A stretch of 5,255 bases of DNA, from positions 1 to 5,255 of the IMG/VR virus record IMGVR_UViG_2695420564_000007; one strand, written 5' to 3'. The position numbers and the translations under genes are program-made. The notes below the pieces were generated by a model. It made no database searches. It was given only the letters and a program-made list of their open reading frames with translations, and was not told the DNA's origin. This document shows, in pieces, positions 1 to 5,255 of the stretch. Each line of letters begins with the position of its first letter. The stretch's first letter is position 1. The DNA comes from a virus (Duplodnaviria; Heunggongvirae; Uroviricota; Caudoviricetes).

Positions 1-89
1 ACCTGCCGAATCAGCATTAATGGAATCAACAACAGTAATACAGCGCCAAACAGGGTAGCTATCTTCCAGAACAGGGGGGATTTCAACAT
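1..89 (-). CDS. creD: Inner membrane protein CreD-like, first 29 codons only (gene runs off the window start)
   Basis: Reverse complement of 1..89 reads ATG TTG AAA TCC... = MLKSPLFWKIATLFGAVLLLLIPLMLIRQ, a hydrophobic signal-anchor N-terminus matching my recollection of E. coli CreD (MLKSPLFWK...). AGGAG-type RBS sits 6-10 nt upstream on the minus strand (plus ~96-101). Too short for the six-frame track. Confidence 0.5.
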   Translation of the reverse strand, partial: MLKSPLFWKIATLFGAVLLLLIPLMLIRQ

Positions 90-163
90 AGTCTTCTCCT
101 TTGCAATAGCGGCAGTTTATTTCATCAGAGTTTTTCTCTCGCCTGATTACAAATTTTGTCGTC

Positions 164-308
164 TTAAAAAGTGATACAGGTTGCGCCCTGTTCGGCACCG
201 GACAGTTTTTCGCGCAAGGCACTGAATAACTCACGTCCTGTTCCCACGCGTGACGCGCTCAGGTCAGGGATGTGCGGTTCACGAGCGGCCAGTTCCGCTT
301 CGTCTACC
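164..308 (-). CDS. C-terminal ~47 codons of an unidentified protein (...LFSALREKLSGAEQGATCITF*), cut off upstream by the NNN at 309-311
   Basis: Minus-strand frame is open from the NNN down to a TAA at 166..164 and reads VDEAELAAREPHIPDLSASRVGTGRELFSALREKLSGAEQGATCITF*. Protein-like composition, but I cannot place the family and it does not resemble a histidine-kinase C-terminus as expected for creC. Confidence 0.25.
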
Positions 309-416
309 ANNNGCCGAATCACGGTCGTTGCGCTACCTACTAGAGTTGAAATTTTCTATCTCAAAACGAATTATTCTGTTTTCGCCCATATAAAAAATAT
401 GTATGCGGAAAGTGCT

Positions 417-2159
417 TTAAAGTAACCAGCCGCGCTCATGTTTCCTGTCGGAGACGCGTGTTCGTGCATATTCCTCGCGCTGCCATTCGTCCCAGGTGCG
501 ATTAAAACCCAGCGAGCGGAACAAATGATCCGGCTGTTTTTCTGGTGTATTGACGGCAGCAAAAAGCGGTGCCTCACGGGTTTTCAGATGAAACAGCATA
601 AGTTCTGGCGCAGGGCGTGCCGGACTGTCAGCATCGTGGTTTACCGCTTCACCATAACCGGCAAATCGTAAACCTTTGTCGGTCAGAGCATTGATTACCA
701 GCTGGCTGTTGTCGGCTGTGGGGACGGCAAACGCAGGATACAGCGTACCATTAAGCCGGACAACACCGCCCAGAGAGTCATCCACGCCCATGACCAGCAA
801 AAGCTGAAGCTGGCGGGTTTCCCGGTCGACAGAACTCATTACCGGCATCAGCGTCGGTGGCAGACGTCCCTGCGTAAAATCCACCTTCCTTGCTGCCAGT
901 GATGGCATGGCTGGCTGGCGGTCTTCTCCAAGACAAAAAGACTCCGGCCATGTCTTCGGCTGGCGGAGATTGCGGGTATGTTGCGGCCATGTCTGGCAAA
1001 CCTGCGTCAGAAGTTGCTCAAAGGTCGCAGAGGAATAAACACGTTGCAGTGGTGGATGTTGACCGATTTCGCTTCGGTCACAGATATAACCACTCCTGTC
1101 ACGCATTAAATCAACACGCTCAAAGATCCTGGTGCGGTATTTCTCCAACTCGTTCCCCCAGAGCGTATATTCTCCGTTCCGGTTGTGAAGCAGAAGGTAA
1201 CAGGTCATTTCCCAGTTACCAGGCATAGGGGCCTCGCCATACCCCGTAACGACTGCGCTCAGTACCCCTGAATCCATAACGGCATTGTCATTTTTCCTGA
1301 GCTGTTCCGCTCGTCGCTCCGCGCGACTACGTTCTGTATCCTCCTGCTCCTTCCTGCGTAATTCCTCTTCACGTTTAAGCAACTGGGCTCTGAGAGCTGC
1401 AAGGCTGGATGCGGCCCACTGCTGCCACTGTTTTTCAAATGCCGTCTGACTCGCGGGAATGTCCTGTTTCTCCACCTTCCGGTAATGCTGTCGCAATTTT
1501 TCCATTTGCTGGCTCAGAGACTGGATTTTTCCCTGCTCACTACGGTATTCCGGTGCCGCCCATTGCATCAGGGGAATACGGGAAAAACCGGACGAAAACG
1601 GCGATGATTTTTTCAGGCTGGCAGCATGGCTCATCGCTTCCTTTCGTTCGGTGTTCAGCTCTTCCCAGCGTCTGCGCGTCGCCTGCATATCTGCCATCAT
1701 CGACATGGCATTACTGGTGAGTTTCCATGCCGCATTACTGTCCTTCGGCAACGCTTCGATGATGTCACGTAGTGTGTACGAAGTTGCGTTGTCAGGAAGC
1801 CCGATATTCAGAAGGTTAGCCACACGGCGGGCTGGCTCTGTCAGCCCGCCGTTCCTGAGTTCGGTGCGGGAAATCTGTATTTCCAGGTTAAGCCTGTTAA
1901 TCAGACGATTCTGTTCGCCGCGTTCTGTTTCGATACCACGTGTTTCCATCGCACAGGCAGACTTTCCGAGGTGAATACCCGGCGTTTTCTCAAGCCCCTG
2001 TCGCTCGTATGAACGATGGTCTATCTCTTCCTGATAACCGGCGTTCGCCAGTGCCCTGTTTGCATGGTCAGCCCATGATGCCCGCCACGCCTCAGCATGT
2101 GTCCGGTCGTTCCAGTCCCTGACCTTTCCGCCNATCTTCTCCATTAAAAAGAGCGCCAC
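417..2159 (-). CDS. MobA/MobL-family (MobQ-type) relaxase-like protein, N-terminally truncated: relaxase-domain tail, long coiled-coil, C-terminal domain of unknown function
   Basis: 580-codon ORF (GTG start at 2159, TAA at 419..417). Residues 10-70 (DWNDRTHAEAWRASWADHANRALANAGYQEEIDHRSYERQGLEKTPGIHLG) match the conserved block after motif III of MobA/MobL relaxases such as Agrobacterium TraA (...LALAGLEVRVDARSY..GIE..PT.HIG). The catalytic Tyr and HxDxxxxHxH motifs that should lie ~150 aa upstream are absent; a stop lies 2 codons upstream of the start. A Q/E/R/K-rich coiled-coil (about aa 200-290) follows. One codon is ambiguous (N at 2133). Confidence 0.55.
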   Translation of the reverse strand: MALFLMEKXGGKVRDWNDRTHAEAWRASWADHANRALANAGYQEEIDHRSYERQGLEKTPGIHLGKSACAMETRGIETERGEQNRLINRLNLEIQISRTELRNGGLTEPARRVANLLNIGLPDNATSYTLRDIIEALPKDSNAAWKLTSNAMSMMADMQATRRRWEELNTERKEAMSHAASLKKSSPFSSGFSRIPLMQWAAPEYRSEQGKIQSLSQQMEKLRQHYRKVEKQDIPASQTAFEKQWQQWAASSLAALRAQLLKREEELRRKEQEDTERSRAERRAEQLRKNDNAVMDSGVLSAVVTGYGEAPMPGNWEMTCYLLLHNRNGEYTLWGNELEKYRTRIFERVDLMRDRSGYICDRSEIGQHPPLQRVYSSATFEQLLTQVCQTWPQHTRNLRQPKTWPESFCLGEDRQPAMPSLAARKVDFTQGRLPPTLMPVMSSVDRETRQLQLLLVMGVDDSLGGVVRLNGTLYPAFAVPTADNSQLVINALTDKGLRFAGYGEAVNHDADSPARPAPELMLFHLKTREAPLFAAVNTPEKQPDHLFRSLGFNRTWDEWQREEYARTRVSDRKHERGWLL

Positions 2160-2440
2160 CGTTTACAGTTATATCAGTATTCTCTTCTGGAGAATCAGGT
2201 GAACTCGTTGTACCACCACTGTTATCTGTTACCAAATCCCCGGTACTGCCTTTTAGACTGCGGCCGCACATAGCGATCCGGCTGACTGGCTGCAGGATAT
2301 TATGGGGCCACCAACCGCTATGGCACGATTTCACTGGCCAGTGCTGCCAGCCAGGCCGGACTGACCTGGGAAGGGCAGGCACACTCAGCGATCGCCGACG
2401 CACGGATGGCGGTGTACATCGAGGATGCCGCCTGAACCAN

Positions 2441-3088
2441 TCAGACGTTGACTGGTTGCGTCTGGCAAAAGTTAAAGACCTGACGCCCGGCGAACTGACC
2501 GCTGAGTCCTATGACGACAGCTATCTCGATGATGAAGATGCAGACTGGACTGCGACCGGGCAGGGGCAGAAATCTGCCGGAGATACCAGCTTCACGCTGG
2601 CGTGGATGCCCGGAGAGCAGGGGCAGCAGGCGCTGCTGGCGTGGTTTAATGAAGGTGATACGCGTGCCTATAAAATCCGCTTCCCGAACGGCACGGTCGA
2701 TGTGTTCCGTGGCTGGGTCAGCAGTATCGGTAAGGCGGTGACGGCGAAGGAAGTGATCACCCGCACGGTGAAGGTCACCAATGTGGGACGCCCGTCGATG
2801 GCTGAAGATCGCAGTACGGTGACGGCGGCAACCGGCATGACGGTAACGCCAGCCAGTGCGTCCGTAGTGAAAGGGCAGAGCACCACGCTGACCGTGGCAT
2901 TCCAGCCGGAAGGCGTAACCGACAAGAGCTTTCGTGCGGTGTCTGCGGATAAAACAAAAGCCACCGTGTCGGTCAGTGGTATGACCATCACCGTGAACGG
3001 CGTTGCTGCAGGCAAGGTCAACATTCCGGTTGTATCCGGTAATGGTGAGTTTGCTGCGGTTGCAGAAATCACCGTCACCGCCAGCTAA
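2441..3088 (+). CDS. V: Lambdoid major tail protein V, C-terminal fragment including the Ig-like (Big_2) domain; N-terminal ~30 codons missing
   Basis: Frame 2 reads [36 protein letters not shown]...FRGWVSSIG...[18 protein letters not shown], which I recognise as lambda gpV. Similarity begins right after the N at 2440; the upstream in-frame sequence is unrelated. The track ORF 2456..3088 uses an internal TTG. TAA at 3086..3088. Confidence 0.8.
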
Positions 3089-3103
3089 TCCGGAGAGTCA
3101 GCG

Positions 3104-3535
3104 ATGTTCCTGAAAACCGAATCATTTGAACATAACGGCGTGACCGTCACGCTTTCTGAACTGTCAGCCCTGCAGCGTATTGAGCATCTTGCCTGGTTGA
3201 AAGAGCAGGAAAAAAAGGCTGAATCCAGTGGCAACCTGCAGGTGTCTGTAGAGGATCTTATCAGAGGCGGGGCGTTTCTGGTGGCGATGTCCCTGTGGCA
3301 TAACCATCCGCAGAAAACGGGGTCACCGTCAATGAATGAGGCTGTGATGCAGATTGAGCAGGAAGTCCTGACCACCTGGCCTGCTGATGCCATTGCCCGG
3401 GCGGAAGATGTGGTGTTGCGTCTGTCCGGGATGAGCGGGCTTGTTCATGTGGATACGGATATTACCGAAGTGGCGAAAAATAACGCGCTGACTGATGATG
3501 ATTTTTCTGCGGGAAAGTCTTCGACGGCGAGCTGA
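3104..3535 (+). CDS. G: Tail assembly chaperone G (lambda gpG homolog), apparently intact
   Basis: 143-codon ORF, ATG at 3104 with a GGAG RBS ~9 nt upstream. Begins MFLKTESFEHNGVTVTLSELSALQRIEHLA... and contains AFLVAMSLWHNHPQKT, as in lambda gpG. Ends ...FSAGKSSTAS* with the slippery heptamer near the 3' end, as in lambda. Confidence 0.9.
   Translation: MFLKTESFEHNGVTVTLSELSALQRIEHLAWLKEQEKKAESSGNLQVSVEDLIRGGAFLVAMSLWHNHPQKTGSPSMNEAVMQIEQEVLTTWPADAIARAEDVVLRLSGMSGLVHVDTDITEVAKNNALTDDDFSAGKSSTAS
3511..3517 (+). other. -1 programmed ribosomal frameshift slippery heptamer G_GGA_AAG for G to GT
   Basis: GGGAAAG at 3511..3517, in the X_XXY_YYZ register relative to the G frame (gcG GGA AAG), 6 codons before the G stop. 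The -1 frame is open from here to 3975. This is the known arrangement for lambda G/GT. Confidence 0.8.
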
Positions 3536-3975
3536 ATTTTGCCCTCAGACTGGCGCGTGAGATGGGGAGGCCTGACTGGCGCGCCATGCTTGCCGGGATG
3601 ACATCCACCGAATATGCCGACTGGCGACATTTTTACCGCATGCATTATTTTCACGATACCCAGCTGGATATGCATTTTTCCGGGCTGACGTACGCTGTAC
3701 TCAGCCTGTTTTTTTGCGATCCGGATATGCATCCCTCTGATTTCAGTCTGCTTGTCCCCCGGCATGAGGAAGAGCAGGTGGAGAGGCCGGATGAGGACAA
3801 AATGCTGATGCAGAAAGCGGCAGGACTTGCCGGAGGCGTCCGGTTCGGTGGGGACGGAGGGCGCGATATTTTATCGTCTGCGGATGTGGCGGATGTCATG
3901 GTGGATGATGCCGCATTAATGGTGGCTTCAGCGGGGATTTCCGGAGGTGTGAGATATGTCCCAGCCGGTTGGTGA
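3517..3975 (+). CDS. T: T portion of the tail assembly chaperone GT fusion (lambda gpT homolog), made only by -1 frameshifting from G
   Basis: -1 frame relative to G reads VFDGELNFALRLAREMGRPDWRAMLAGMTSTEYADWRHFYRMHYFHDTQLDMHFSGLTY...GGVRYVPAGW*. No independent start or RBS at the 5' end (track ORF 3562..3975 starts at an internal Met). Stop TGA at 3973..3975. Confidence 0.8.
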   Translation, partial: VFDGELNFALRLAREMGRPDWRAMLAGMTSTEYADWRHFYRMHYFHDTQLDMHFSGLTYAVLSLFFCDPDMHPSDFSLLVPRHEEEQVERPDEDKMLMQKAAGLAGGVRFGGDGGRDILSSADVADVMVDDAALMVASAGISGGVRYVPAGW

Positions 3976-4048
3976 TCTTGTTATTGACCTTAGTCTGGAT
4001 GCGGTCCGTTTCGATGAGCAGATGAGCCGGGTAAGGCGTCATTTTTCA
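3956..4048 (+). CDS. H: Tail tape-measure protein H, N-terminal 31 codons only; truncated at the NN at 4049-4050
   Basis: ATG at 3956 overlaps the T 3' end by 20 nt and reads MSQPVGDLVIDLSLDAVRFDEQMSRVRRHFS, close to the lambda gpH N-terminus as I recall it (MAEPVGDLVVDLSLDAARFDEQMARVRRHFS). After the NN the frame encodes unrelated sequence and the antisense strand becomes nuoM. Confidence 0.65.
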
Positions 4049-4050
4049 NN

Positions 4051-4148
4051 AGCGCTATCCAGCGCGGCACCTTGACGCCAAAGCGTTCGGTCTGCCAGCA
4101 CAGGAAGCCGCCGATAAAGGGAATCAATATTAGCCAGGGTAGTAACAT
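4051..4148 (-). CDS. nuoM: NADH-quinone oxidoreductase subunit M, N-terminal ~33 codons only
   Basis: Minus-strand ATG at 4148..4146 reads MLLPWLILIPFIGGFLCWQTERFGVKVPRWIAL, matching the E. coli NuoM N-terminus from memory. The reading frame is cut at the NN (4049-4050), where lambdoid H sequence begins on the opposite side. Confidence 0.6.
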
Positions 4149-4196
4149 GGCGATCTTTATTCCTTGTAAAAGTCCCGTCAGGACCGGATTTTCAAC

Positions 4197-4691
4197 GAAT
4201 TCTCAGACGCGCTGGCAAAAGTGATGCCGTCTGACATCCCGCTTAAACACCGTCACTGGCTGGGCCTACAAATGCTGGAAGGCGATATTTACAGCCGTGC
4301 CTATGCCGGTGAAGCGTCGCAGCACCTGGATGCCGCCCTCGCCCGTCTGCGTAATGAAATGGACGATCCGGCATTGCACATTGCTGATGCCCGCTACCAG
4401 TGCATTGCAGCTATCTGTGATGTGGTAAGCAACACTCTGACGGCAGAACCCAGCCGTTTTACTACCGCGGTGGATAAAATCGTGCTTAACCGTTTCCTCG
4501 GTCTGCCGATTTTCCTGTTCGTCATGTACCTGATGTTCCTGCTTGCCATCAACATCGGCGGAGCATTACAGCCACTGTTTGATGTCGGTTCTGTGGCGCT
4601 GTTTGTACATGGTATTCAGTGGATTGGCTACACACTCCACTTCCCGGACTGGCTGACTATCTTCCTCGCCCAGGGGCTTGGCGGCGGTATT
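4197..4691 (+). CDS. feoB: Ferrous iron transporter FeoB, internal fragment (linker/helical region and start of the membrane domain); G-domain and most of the membrane domain absent
   Basis: Plus frame reads ...SDALAKVMPSDIPLKHRHWLGLQMLEGDIYSRAYAGEASQHLDAALARLRNEMDDPALHIADARYQ...VDKIVLNRFLGLPIFLFVMYLMFLLAINIGGALQPLFDVGSVALFVHGIQWIGYTLHFPDWLTIFLAQGLGGGI, typical of FeoB at the start of its transmembrane core. It has no upstream GTPase domain (upstream is nuoM antisense) and stops matching FeoB after ...GGGI at ~4691. The left boundary (4197-4203) is approximate. Confidence 0.7.
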
Positions 4692-4923
4692 CGAGGTACC
4701 TCTTTCGTTCCTTTCAGGATGAACGTGTAATTGCCCGGCGTATTGTTTTTCATCAGACGAAACGCGACGTTATCGACAAACGAATAGGTCGAAAGCTCAG
4801 AAAGATCGCGACACATCAGAGTAAAGTTGTGACCGTCCGGCAGCTGACGAATACGACAAATGCGCTCCATTGCGTTTTTATCTTCAATTTTACAACCGAG
4901 CGCATAGCCGGAATCGGTTGGAT
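4692..4923 (-). CDS. yciO: YciO (Sua5/YrdC/YciO family) internal fragment, roughly residues 30-105
   Basis: Minus strand reads YPTDSGYALGCKIEDKNAMERICRIRQLPDGHNFTLMCRDLSELSTYSFVDNVAFRLMKNNTPGNYTFILKGTKEVPR, matching E. coli YciO from memory. Flanking residues on both sides do not fit YciO, and there is no start or stop of its own. Confidence 0.6.
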
Positions 4924-5255
4924 ATCGCATGGGTTGCCGCCTCACGGGCTGATGTGCTGGCATCGCCGGCTGACTTCTTCGCGGCTGCCGTGTTCTGTGC
5001 CACCGCAGACGCGTTACGCGCCACCTCTTCCACCATCAGTTCAAAACGGCGCAGTGCCTCAGGACGGGCAATGATAAACAGAATCATGGCAATGAGCGGA
5101 CCACTTATCGCGTAAATCATTGAAATAGCATTCGGGTTGATACAGCAGATGATAAAGGTAATCAGCGATACCAACATAATGGATAGTGCGCGGTTAAATG
5201 ACCGGCTTTTTTTAATCCCTACCTGTTGTAATGTTGTTTTGACAACTTCAGTTGC
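4924..5255 (-). CDS. Unidentified membrane protein, N-terminal region (about 40 hydrophobic residues followed by an Ala-rich helical segment); runs off the window end
   Basis: Minus frame is open from 5255 and reads ATEVVKTTLQQVGIKKSRSFNRALSIMLVSLITFIICCINPNAISMIYAISGPLIAMILFIIARPEALRRFELMVEEVARNASAVAQNTAAAKKSAGDASTSAREAATHA. The hydrophobic stretch then helical segment looks like a real membrane protein, and is loosely reminiscent of chemoreceptor cytoplasmic helices, but I cannot assign a family. The track ORF 4890..5177 is the same frame from an internal ATG; its last ~10 codons run into the yciO fragment. Confidence 0.3.

Follow-up and report, generated by a model that had tools for sequence, protein, structure and literature searches.

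Composition of the window

Is the stretch of DNA analysed here (5255 bp, called the window), in which pieces of bacterial genes stand next to phage tail genes, a contiguous native locus? The initial annotation had read it as a mosaic of unrelated gene fragments, and comparison with 5426 complete E. coli genomes bore this out: none (0/5426) carried at least 80% of the window in one place, and a single genome aligning collinearly with it was looked for in this set and not found. In the median genome, the pieces fell in seven separate places. We resolved at least 13 fragments joined at 12 junctions, a finer map than the one proposed initially. They derive from a chromosome, two plasmids and a prophage, are not adjacent in their sources and lie in mixed orientation. 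Alignments revealed a separate native locus for each assigned segment and an abrupt departure from that locus. From left to right the pieces belong to creD, eda/edd, a MobQ plasmid, a stretch of 121 nt, an exonuclease gene (two pieces), a stretch of 27 nt, the phage block V-G-T-H, nuoM, feoB, yciO, a tail-fibre gene and yqeG. Very short pieces of 27-233 nt are found between longer native stretches of 486, 1608 and 1820 nt.

The window spans the whole of the NCBI WGS contig CCBU01001292.1, with a contig number above 1290, of GCA_000940615.1, a very fragmented public assembly of Escherichia albertii type. Judged by the ORF list, gene calls and Pfam, it contains no complete gene except phage G and T, and neither the window nor the sister contig described below showed a replication, integration or transposition function. 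An IS, an att site or a repeat boundary was likewise not seen in either contig. Truncated genes of this kind, accompanied only by phage G and T and without boundary or mobility features, do not constitute a natural genomic island or a mosaic of mobile elements.

Chromosomal fragments

The left end of the window, initially taken as one segment (1-308), consists of two pieces, both on the minus strand. Positions 1-115 are the 5' end of creD, with the first 89 nt of the coding sequence (window 1-89) and 26 nt upstream, and are 90.4% identical to K-12 (local BLAST, K-12 L001 13267-13153). Positions 113-309 comprise the start of eda (11 nt), the eda-edd spacer and the last ~146 nt of edd, with 94.9% identity to K-12. 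On the right, the 5' end of nuoM (4051-4205, minus strand; first 98 nt with the start codon at 4148, and 57 nt upstream) is 97.4% identical to K-12. It is followed on the plus strand by an internal piece of feoB (4206-4691) covering approximately codons 187-347, which corresponds to K-12 feoB nt ~559-1041. The boundary between these two had been placed at 4197; its true position is 4205|4206. As predicted initially, the feoB piece has no GTPase domain, its Pfam match being FeoB_Cyto only and no G domain. Past both of its break points, feoB of the E. albertii reference (L012) continues natively. The adjoining yciO piece (4692-4924, minus strand, 90.1% to K-12) holds nt 94-326 of 621 and has neither start nor stop, again as first described. 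The right-hand segment 4924-5255, previously treated as a unit, is composed of an internal piece of a gene for a prophage tail-fibre N-terminal domain (4925-5070, minus strand), 100% identical to several E. coli prophages, and an internal piece of the amino-acid permease gene yqeG (5071-5255, minus strand), which reaches the contig end and shows 84.3% identity to E. coli.

The earlier designation of these genes as E. coli core genes was correct as to gene identity but not as to E. coli sensu stricto: the feoB piece has 98.6% identity to E. albertii NBRC 107761 as compared to 90% to E. coli K-12. By piece, identity to E. coli was 84% for yqeG, about 90% for creD and yciO, 95% for eda and 97% for nuoM.

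Plasmid and unmatched fragments

Positions 313-2132 (minus strand) contain codons 149-719 of mobQ and 104 nt downstream of it, with two mismatches in 1820 nt to pGCUET01-4. The segment was initially extended to 2159; it ends at 2132, ahead of an N at 2133. With 99.9% identity to the mobQ region of a 5.1-kb E. coli plasmid, the piece closely resembles the MobQ (MobA/MobL) relaxases of small plasmids, from which it differs in lacking the N-terminal 148 codons; moreover, the window has neither oriT nor mobC nor rep. The suggestion that this relaxase has no catalytic core is confirmed by the absence of the first 444 nt. The window ORF retains positions 163-224 of the 224 positions of the Pfam profile MobA_MobL, whereas the full-length reference matches positions 2-224, and it does not encode a functional MobQ relaxase.

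The region 2160-2439 had been regarded as one segment, but at least four pieces can be distinguished here. For a stretch of 121 nt (2134-2254), neither the E. coli genomes nor the plasmid matches listed gave a counterpart, and Pfam gave no match. It is followed on the plus strand by two pieces of a plasmid 3'-5' exonuclease gene, 2255-2292, which is 100% identical to NZ_CP024225.1 (L091 1501-1538), and 2286-2412 (L091 1569-1695). From the first piece to the second, the gene sequence jumps 37 nt at a 7-nt direct repeat (2286-2292). This microhomology sets the skip apart from the other joins and may mean that more than one joining process was involved. The last 27 nt (2413-2439) have no source assigned.

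Phage-derived block

Positions 2441-4048 (plus strand) are 100% identical to positions 5338-6945 of a contig with an intact prophage (L007). Like lambda-type tail modules with their G/GT -1 frameshift, the block has its genes in the order V, G, T, H, the motif GGGAAAG near the end of G (at 3511) and Pfam matches to Phage_TTP_12/Big_2, Phage_TAC_2 and Phage_tail_T. G extends from 3104 to 3535 and the T ORF from 3562 to 3975. In contrast to such modules, the block is a 1608-nt excerpt. V, which ends at 3088, lacks its first 31 codons (93 nt), and H (3956-4048) is cut after its first 31 codons (93 nt), each as compared to the intact prophage contig and as the initial annotation had stated for both genes. 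Because of these truncations, the V-G-T-H block is not a functional tail module in this contig.

At both ends the block departs from the prophage contig abruptly, at single bases. Native-phage 34-mers, meant to fetch from IMG/VR further contigs of the window's own and the sister assembly, proved too conserved for this and matched 240 unrelated lambdoid loci, which served as a background set. Three native break points are crossed by 199-211 of these 240 independent loci, and the window junctions occur in none of them (0/240).

Junction sequences

The native flanks on both sides were in hand for three junctions, all of which are blunt with 0-3 nt of overlap: creD and eda overlap by 3 nt (CAG), nuoM|feoB and feoB|yciO by 0 nt. 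An apparent 14-nt microhomology at nuoM|feoB was an artefact of alignment to the diverged K-12 feoB and disappeared with the E. albertii reference, which places a blunt join at 4205|4206.

The window contains four runs of N, which had not been mentioned before, and all of them sit on junctions; eight of the twelve joins are seamless and carry no N. At 310-312 (NNN, eda/edd to MobQ plasmid), native eda/edd reads GCA and the native plasmid TTT. A single N at 2133 marks the transition from the plasmid piece to the 121-nt stretch, and another at 2440 the transition from the 27-nt piece to the phage block, where native phage has T and where the junction is missing from the sister contig. At 4049-4050 (NN, phage block to nuoM), native phage has GG and the sister contig CC. 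The native continuations disagree at the N columns wherever both were readable. In the sister contig, too, Ns are found only on columns where the native feoB and yciO sides disagree. This coincidence of Ns with disagreeing native continuations makes support for the junctions look about as thin as that from native reads.

Adaptor, linker and vector 12-mers (Nextera, TruSeq, Ion, 454, SMRTbell, WGA primers, M13/T7) were sought at the joins and not found, and the 12 joins have neither a motif in common nor a recurring restriction site. The 36-mer across nuoM|feoB had no match in 185,579 species-representative genomes or 241 M metagenome records, and ORFs spanning the junctions are singletons among ~15 billion proteins.

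A second assembly shares part of the mosaic

Five junctions and the right-hand contig end are common to contig CDRK01001346.1 of assembly GCA_000936005.1 (L002), which IMG/VR catalogues as the viral genome IMGVR_UViG_2695420687_000009. This sister contig was the only other carrier of window junctions among the genomes and contigs searched; neither the E. albertii species representative nor any other genome searched has them. Over 2.8 kb the two contigs show no SNP. One join differs between the assemblies by a 2-nt indel and Ns, and the contigs disagree as to what lies to the left of the phage piece. The private end of the sister contig is also a mosaic, with yqjD at 1-115 and proC at 116-240.

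Origin of the contig

We consider it very probable that the window is not a native locus but a chimeric contig of artefactual origin, formed when an assembler chained together chimeras present in a sequencing library. The fragment map, the blunt joins where both flanks are known, the abrupt departures from the native loci and the Ns on disagreeing columns at the joins are its observed basis. Of the possibilities raised initially, a chimeric read or clone or a misassembled contig is supported by these features of a complete small contig, while a deliberately composed sequence is not, as the window is a deposited public contig with no vector, adaptor or systematic restriction site at its joins. 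The DNA would have come from one isolate of E. albertii type with a chromosome, a small MobQ plasmid, a second, larger one with the exonuclease gene and a lambdoid prophage. The library presumably held molecules in which short fragments were joined end to end, most likely by blunt ligation of fragment to fragment during library construction or pre-amplification. Chimeric reads would then have served the assembler as bridges on which it walked into ordinary native reads and out again; the runs of short pieces (27-233 nt) plausibly lie within single chimeric reads, and the longer stretches would be native. At the joins, overhanging reads from the native locus would conflict with the chimeric reads, and the consensus caller would write N. 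Low read support of this kind would also account for the indel and Ns by which one join differs between the two assemblies, as such a difference is expected if support is thin.

Like chimeric contigs and library inserts of draft assemblies, the window combines unrelated pieces that do not meet at biological boundary features; it is likewise a small contig from a highly fragmented assembly, with ambiguous bases at the joins and with joins absent from reference genomes. It differs from them in its unusual density, with 12 joins in 5.3 kb, and in the recurrence of five joins in a second assembly, which one-off chimeras would not show unless the assemblies had data or a DNA preparation in common. 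Chimeras from random ligation are not expected to appear again in independent libraries. The artefactual origin therefore requires that the two assemblies shared a DNA preparation, a library or reads, or that the chimera was amplified before library preparation.

An unlikely alternative is a purely computational misjoin, in which no molecule or read contained the junctions and a scaffolder, contig merger or consensus step abutted small contigs, writing N where ends collided. The Ns at four of the 12 joins do behave like two colliding sequences, feoB|yciO of the sister contig resembles a forced overlap of unrelated ends (~20 columns, nine of them agreeing), and both assemblies are highly fragmented. 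However, the other eight joins are seamless, and where both flanks are known, at three junctions, the overlap of 0-3 nt rules out false joins driven by overlaps or k-mers and implies that reads contain those junctions; De Bruijn or overlap assemblers cannot make such joins unless reads span them. Moreover, pieces of 27 and 38 nt could not stand alone as contigs, each N takes the place of a base and is no gap insertion (NN of the window corresponds to CC of the sister contig at equal length), and five joins recur in both assemblies.

That recurrence, together with the missing SNPs over 2.8 kb in two separately deposited assemblies, would be explained by a real DNA molecule of an E. albertii lineage, in which fragments of the chromosome, two plasmids and a prophage were joined by their ends in vivo, conceivably when the DNA had been extensively broken or degraded through phage action, and maintained as an additional locus or episome. 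One cell could supply all the pieces, and the characterised joins are blunt and resemble end joining. Nevertheless, we regard such a molecule, including a trigger of this kind, as very unlikely. To our knowledge, the Ku/LigD end-joining pathway is lacking in E. coli-group bacteria, and neither contig shows a mobility or replication function or an element boundary. A junction sequence differs between the two records, which also conflict to the left of the phage piece, and Ns at joins are unexpected for a single-copy locus at normal depth. The joins are missing from the species representative and all other genomes searched, and the pieces of 1.6-1.8 kb would duplicate native DNA exactly, a kind of repeat that short-read assemblers do not normally resolve.

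Still more improbable, to the point of being almost negligible, is an engineered or cloned concatemer from restriction-ligation cloning or from a proximity-ligation library of the 3C/Hi-C type. GAATTC, GGTACC, GATATC and GCGGCCGC occur near some proposed joins, and the source replicons share one cell. These EcoRI, KpnI, EcoRV and NotI sites were examined as traces of such an origin and rejected, being native to the fragments or created by a join: GAATTC belongs to the native sequence upstream of nuoM, the true join being at 4205|4206, GCGGCCGC is part of the native plasmid exonuclease gene and GATATC arises from the join itself. No site is repeated over the 12 joins, and they carry no vector or adaptor sequence.

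Significance

The overall fragment evidence supports the initial warning that any operon or system spanning the junctions would be an artefact. The joins of the window have no biological importance and should not be read as linking genes into an operon, a system or a gene fusion. Their importance is one of data hygiene: the spurious fusion ORFs of both contigs, for example feoB-yciO, are singletons in large protein collections. GCA_000940615.1 and GCA_000936005.1 probably contain many more contigs of this kind, and both assemblies should be used with caution in pangenome or prophage surveys.

Fragment composition of the window

The window constitutes the entire NCBI WGS contig CCBU01001292.1 of assembly GCA_000940615.1, and the contig number above 1290 points to a very fragmented draft assembly. 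Megablast with the whole window yielded matches in all 5426 of 5426 complete E. coli genomes, at a median of 7 separate places per genome, and no place covering 80% of the window in any of them. Segment-wise searches and local BLAST comparisons, for which regions of K-12, an E. albertii reference, plasmids and an intact prophage contig served as subjects, resolved at least 13 fragments and 12 junctions. The initial annotation had proposed a mosaic of eight unrelated segments. The mosaic stood, as the pieces map to separate loci and the whole window is collinear in 0/5426 E. coli genomes; the segmentation did not, as several boundaries were misplaced and three of the segments were themselves composite.

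The left part comprises the creD 5′ end (1–115, minus strand, 90.4% identity to K-12), the eda start with the edd 3′ end (113–309, 94.9% to K-12) and a piece of a small MobQ plasmid (313–2132) differing from pGCUET01-4 by 2 mismatches in 1820 nt. These are followed by a 121-nt piece (2134–2254), two pieces of a plasmid 3′–5′ exonuclease gene (2255–2292 and 2286–2412, 100%) and a 27-nt piece (2413–2439). The 121-nt and 27-nt pieces, which have no assigned source, gave no match in the 5426 E. coli genomes, the plasmid matches listed, 240 prophage loci or Pfam; the former contains, on its minus strand, an open frame with abundant G, T, S and D. Within the exonuclease gene, 37 nt are skipped across a 7-nt direct repeat at 2286–2292, a skip that the best-matching plasmids did not show. 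Whereas the joins elsewhere in the window are blunt, this event is of the microhomology type and represents either a true deletion allele or an artefact of polymerase template switching.

The right part consists of a lambdoid V(partial)-G-T-H block (2441–4048), the nuoM 5′ end with upstream DNA (4051–4205, 97.4% to K-12), internal pieces of feoB (4206–4691) and yciO (4692–4924, minus strand, 90.1% to K-12), a prophage tail-fibre gene piece (4925–5070, 100% to E. coli prophages) and yqeG (5071–5255, 84.3%). The truncations noticed initially were all recovered: feoB lacks the G domain, yciO both ends and V its N-terminus, H stops after 31 codons, and of the catalytic part of the relaxase nothing remains, only MobA_MobL profile positions 163–224 of 224 being left.

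Native context of the phage block and the host DNA

The gpG protein of the window is also encoded on the 11.8-kb Logan contig ERR738819_130 (L007), which bears an intact lambdoid module from portal to tail. Window positions 2441–4048 equal L007 5338–6945 with 0 mismatches, and similarity is lost at single bases on both sides. Among 240 independent lambdoid prophage loci from IMG/VR, a single collinear alignment ran through L007 positions 5338, 6945 and 4396 in 199/240, 201/240 and 211/240, respectively, and the window junctions were crossed in 0/240. Two of these loci, IMGVR_UViG_3300001493_000001 and IMGVR_UViG_2671180673_000015, contain 29 and 27 short N runs and could likewise be chimeric or of low quality. 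The block resembles the lambda-type V-G-T-H tail module, including a GGGAAAG heptamer (3511–3517) near the gpG end, but is an excerpt only. With this slippery site and the succession of the G (3104–3535) and T (3562–3975) ORFs, the prophage excerpt retains the layout of the programmed −1 frameshift of lambda G/GT. The plasmid piece holds a truncated version of a MobQ relaxase gene, and neither it nor the tail block is functional in the window.

Identity of the feoB piece is 98.6% to Escherichia albertii NBRC 107761 but just 90% to E. coli, E. ruysiae and other Escherichia; the 84–97% identity that the remaining chromosomal pieces show to E. coli would be consistent with E. albertii-type divergence. 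Together, these values indicate host DNA that is E. albertii-like rather than E. coli. In the E. albertii reference, feoB continues natively beyond both break points, and the 36-mer spanning the nuoM|feoB junction was not found in 185,579 species-representative genomes or the metagenome collection. The assembly accessions are cited in no paper of the literature searched, where one E. albertii-related paper concerns other assemblies. The species-representative records CP169086.1 and CP170191.1, named Enterobacter hormaechei, carry feoB with 89.8–90% DNA identity, as near to the window as that of K-12, and the Chryseobacterium sp. record CACSKA010000004.1 contains an Enterobacteriaceae-type feoB; all three are probably mislabelled or contaminated.

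Sister contig, joins and ambiguous bases

A sister contig, IMGVR_UViG_2695420687_000009 (CDRK01001346.1 of GCA_000936005.1, 4003 bp), differs from window 2441–5255 only in Ns and, at the feoB|yciO join, a 2-nt indel, and thus shares five joins and the right-hand end. On its left side, native phage sequence is kept 942 nt further, up to L007 4396, beyond which lie proC (116–240, about 91% to E. coli) and yqjD (1–115, 92%). Both records are therefore mosaics, and they branch differently at the same native sequence; a greedy path through a tangled read graph would do likewise. The joins private to the window were not found in IMG/VR, and among about 15 billion collected proteins the junction-spanning ORFs are singletons.

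Overlap was measured at the three junctions for which both native flanks were in hand, and amounted to 3 nt (CAG) at creD|eda and 0 nt each at nuoM|feoB and feoB|yciO; an apparent 14-nt overlap that alignment to K-12 had suggested at nuoM|feoB was lost when feoB of E. albertii served as the reference. No motif recurred at the joins of the window, and 12-mers of adaptors, linkers or vectors were absent. EcoRI and NotI sites near joins are native to their own fragments, and an EcoRV site was made by the joining itself. These features argue against cloning, proximity ligation and linker-mediated joining, and the short overlaps (0–3 nt) also against overlap- or k-mer-driven false joins. The N-free junctions, at least, were presumably present in reads.

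All four short N runs of the window (310–312, 2133, 2440 and 4049–4050) lie at joins, and where both native continuations are readable their bases conflict at the N columns. NNN at 310–312 corresponds to GCA in native eda/edd and TTT in the native plasmid, NN at 4049–4050 to GG in native phage and CC in the sister contig, and N at 2440 to T in native phage; position 2133 is the first base past the end of the plasmid match. At the feoB|yciO join of the sister contig, AACNNNGTNCNNCNTTNG, called bases mark columns where the native feoB and yciO sides agree and Ns stand on disagreeing columns only. The Ns substitute for bases and are no gap spacers, as window NN and sister CC are of equal length. 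They probably reflect consensus ties between native-locus reads overhanging a join and reads containing it; support for the junctions would then be about as thin as that for the competing native reads.

Origin of the mosaic

We consider it very probable that the window is an artefactual chimera rather than a native locus; as a whole it belongs with the chimeric contigs of draft assemblies. Within this judgement, chimeric library molecules that the assembler chained together receive about two thirds of the weight, and other ways of producing an artefact the remainder. The simplest source of such molecules would be blunt ligation of fragments to one another while the library was made, or a pre-amplification step based on ligation. 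Several tiny ligated fragments would then sit in each of a small number of reads, themselves a few hundred bases long, and the assembler would link these reads via ordinary native ones. Fragment sizes are bimodal, as would be expected from this process: runs of very short pieces (115+197, 121+38+127+27, 155 and 233+146+185 nt) lie between long native stretches (1820, 1608 and 486 nt).

One observation does not fit, since random ligation chimeras are expected to be unique to one library, whereas another deposited assembly contains five of the same joins. Possibly both assemblies share isolate, DNA or reads, or the chimeras were amplified before library preparation. The recurrence would also be accounted for if the mosaic physically existed in the strain, which is the least likely explanation: the join sequence is not the same in the two records and carries Ns, the records conflict left of the phage piece, and functions for replication, integration or transposition are lacking from the window, as are boundary repeats. 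Moreover, the contig traverses pieces of 1.6–1.8 kb, each of which would exactly duplicate native DNA.

IMG/VR lists the sister contig as a viral genome with the order yqjD, proC, phage Z-U-V-G-T-H′, nuoM, feoB, yciO, stf and yqeG, although host DNA of non-phage origin, artificially joined, makes up about 36% of it. The practical value of the window is solely that of a warning that chimerism has contaminated both assemblies as well as several singleton fusion proteins and one "viral genome" entry of IMG/VR.
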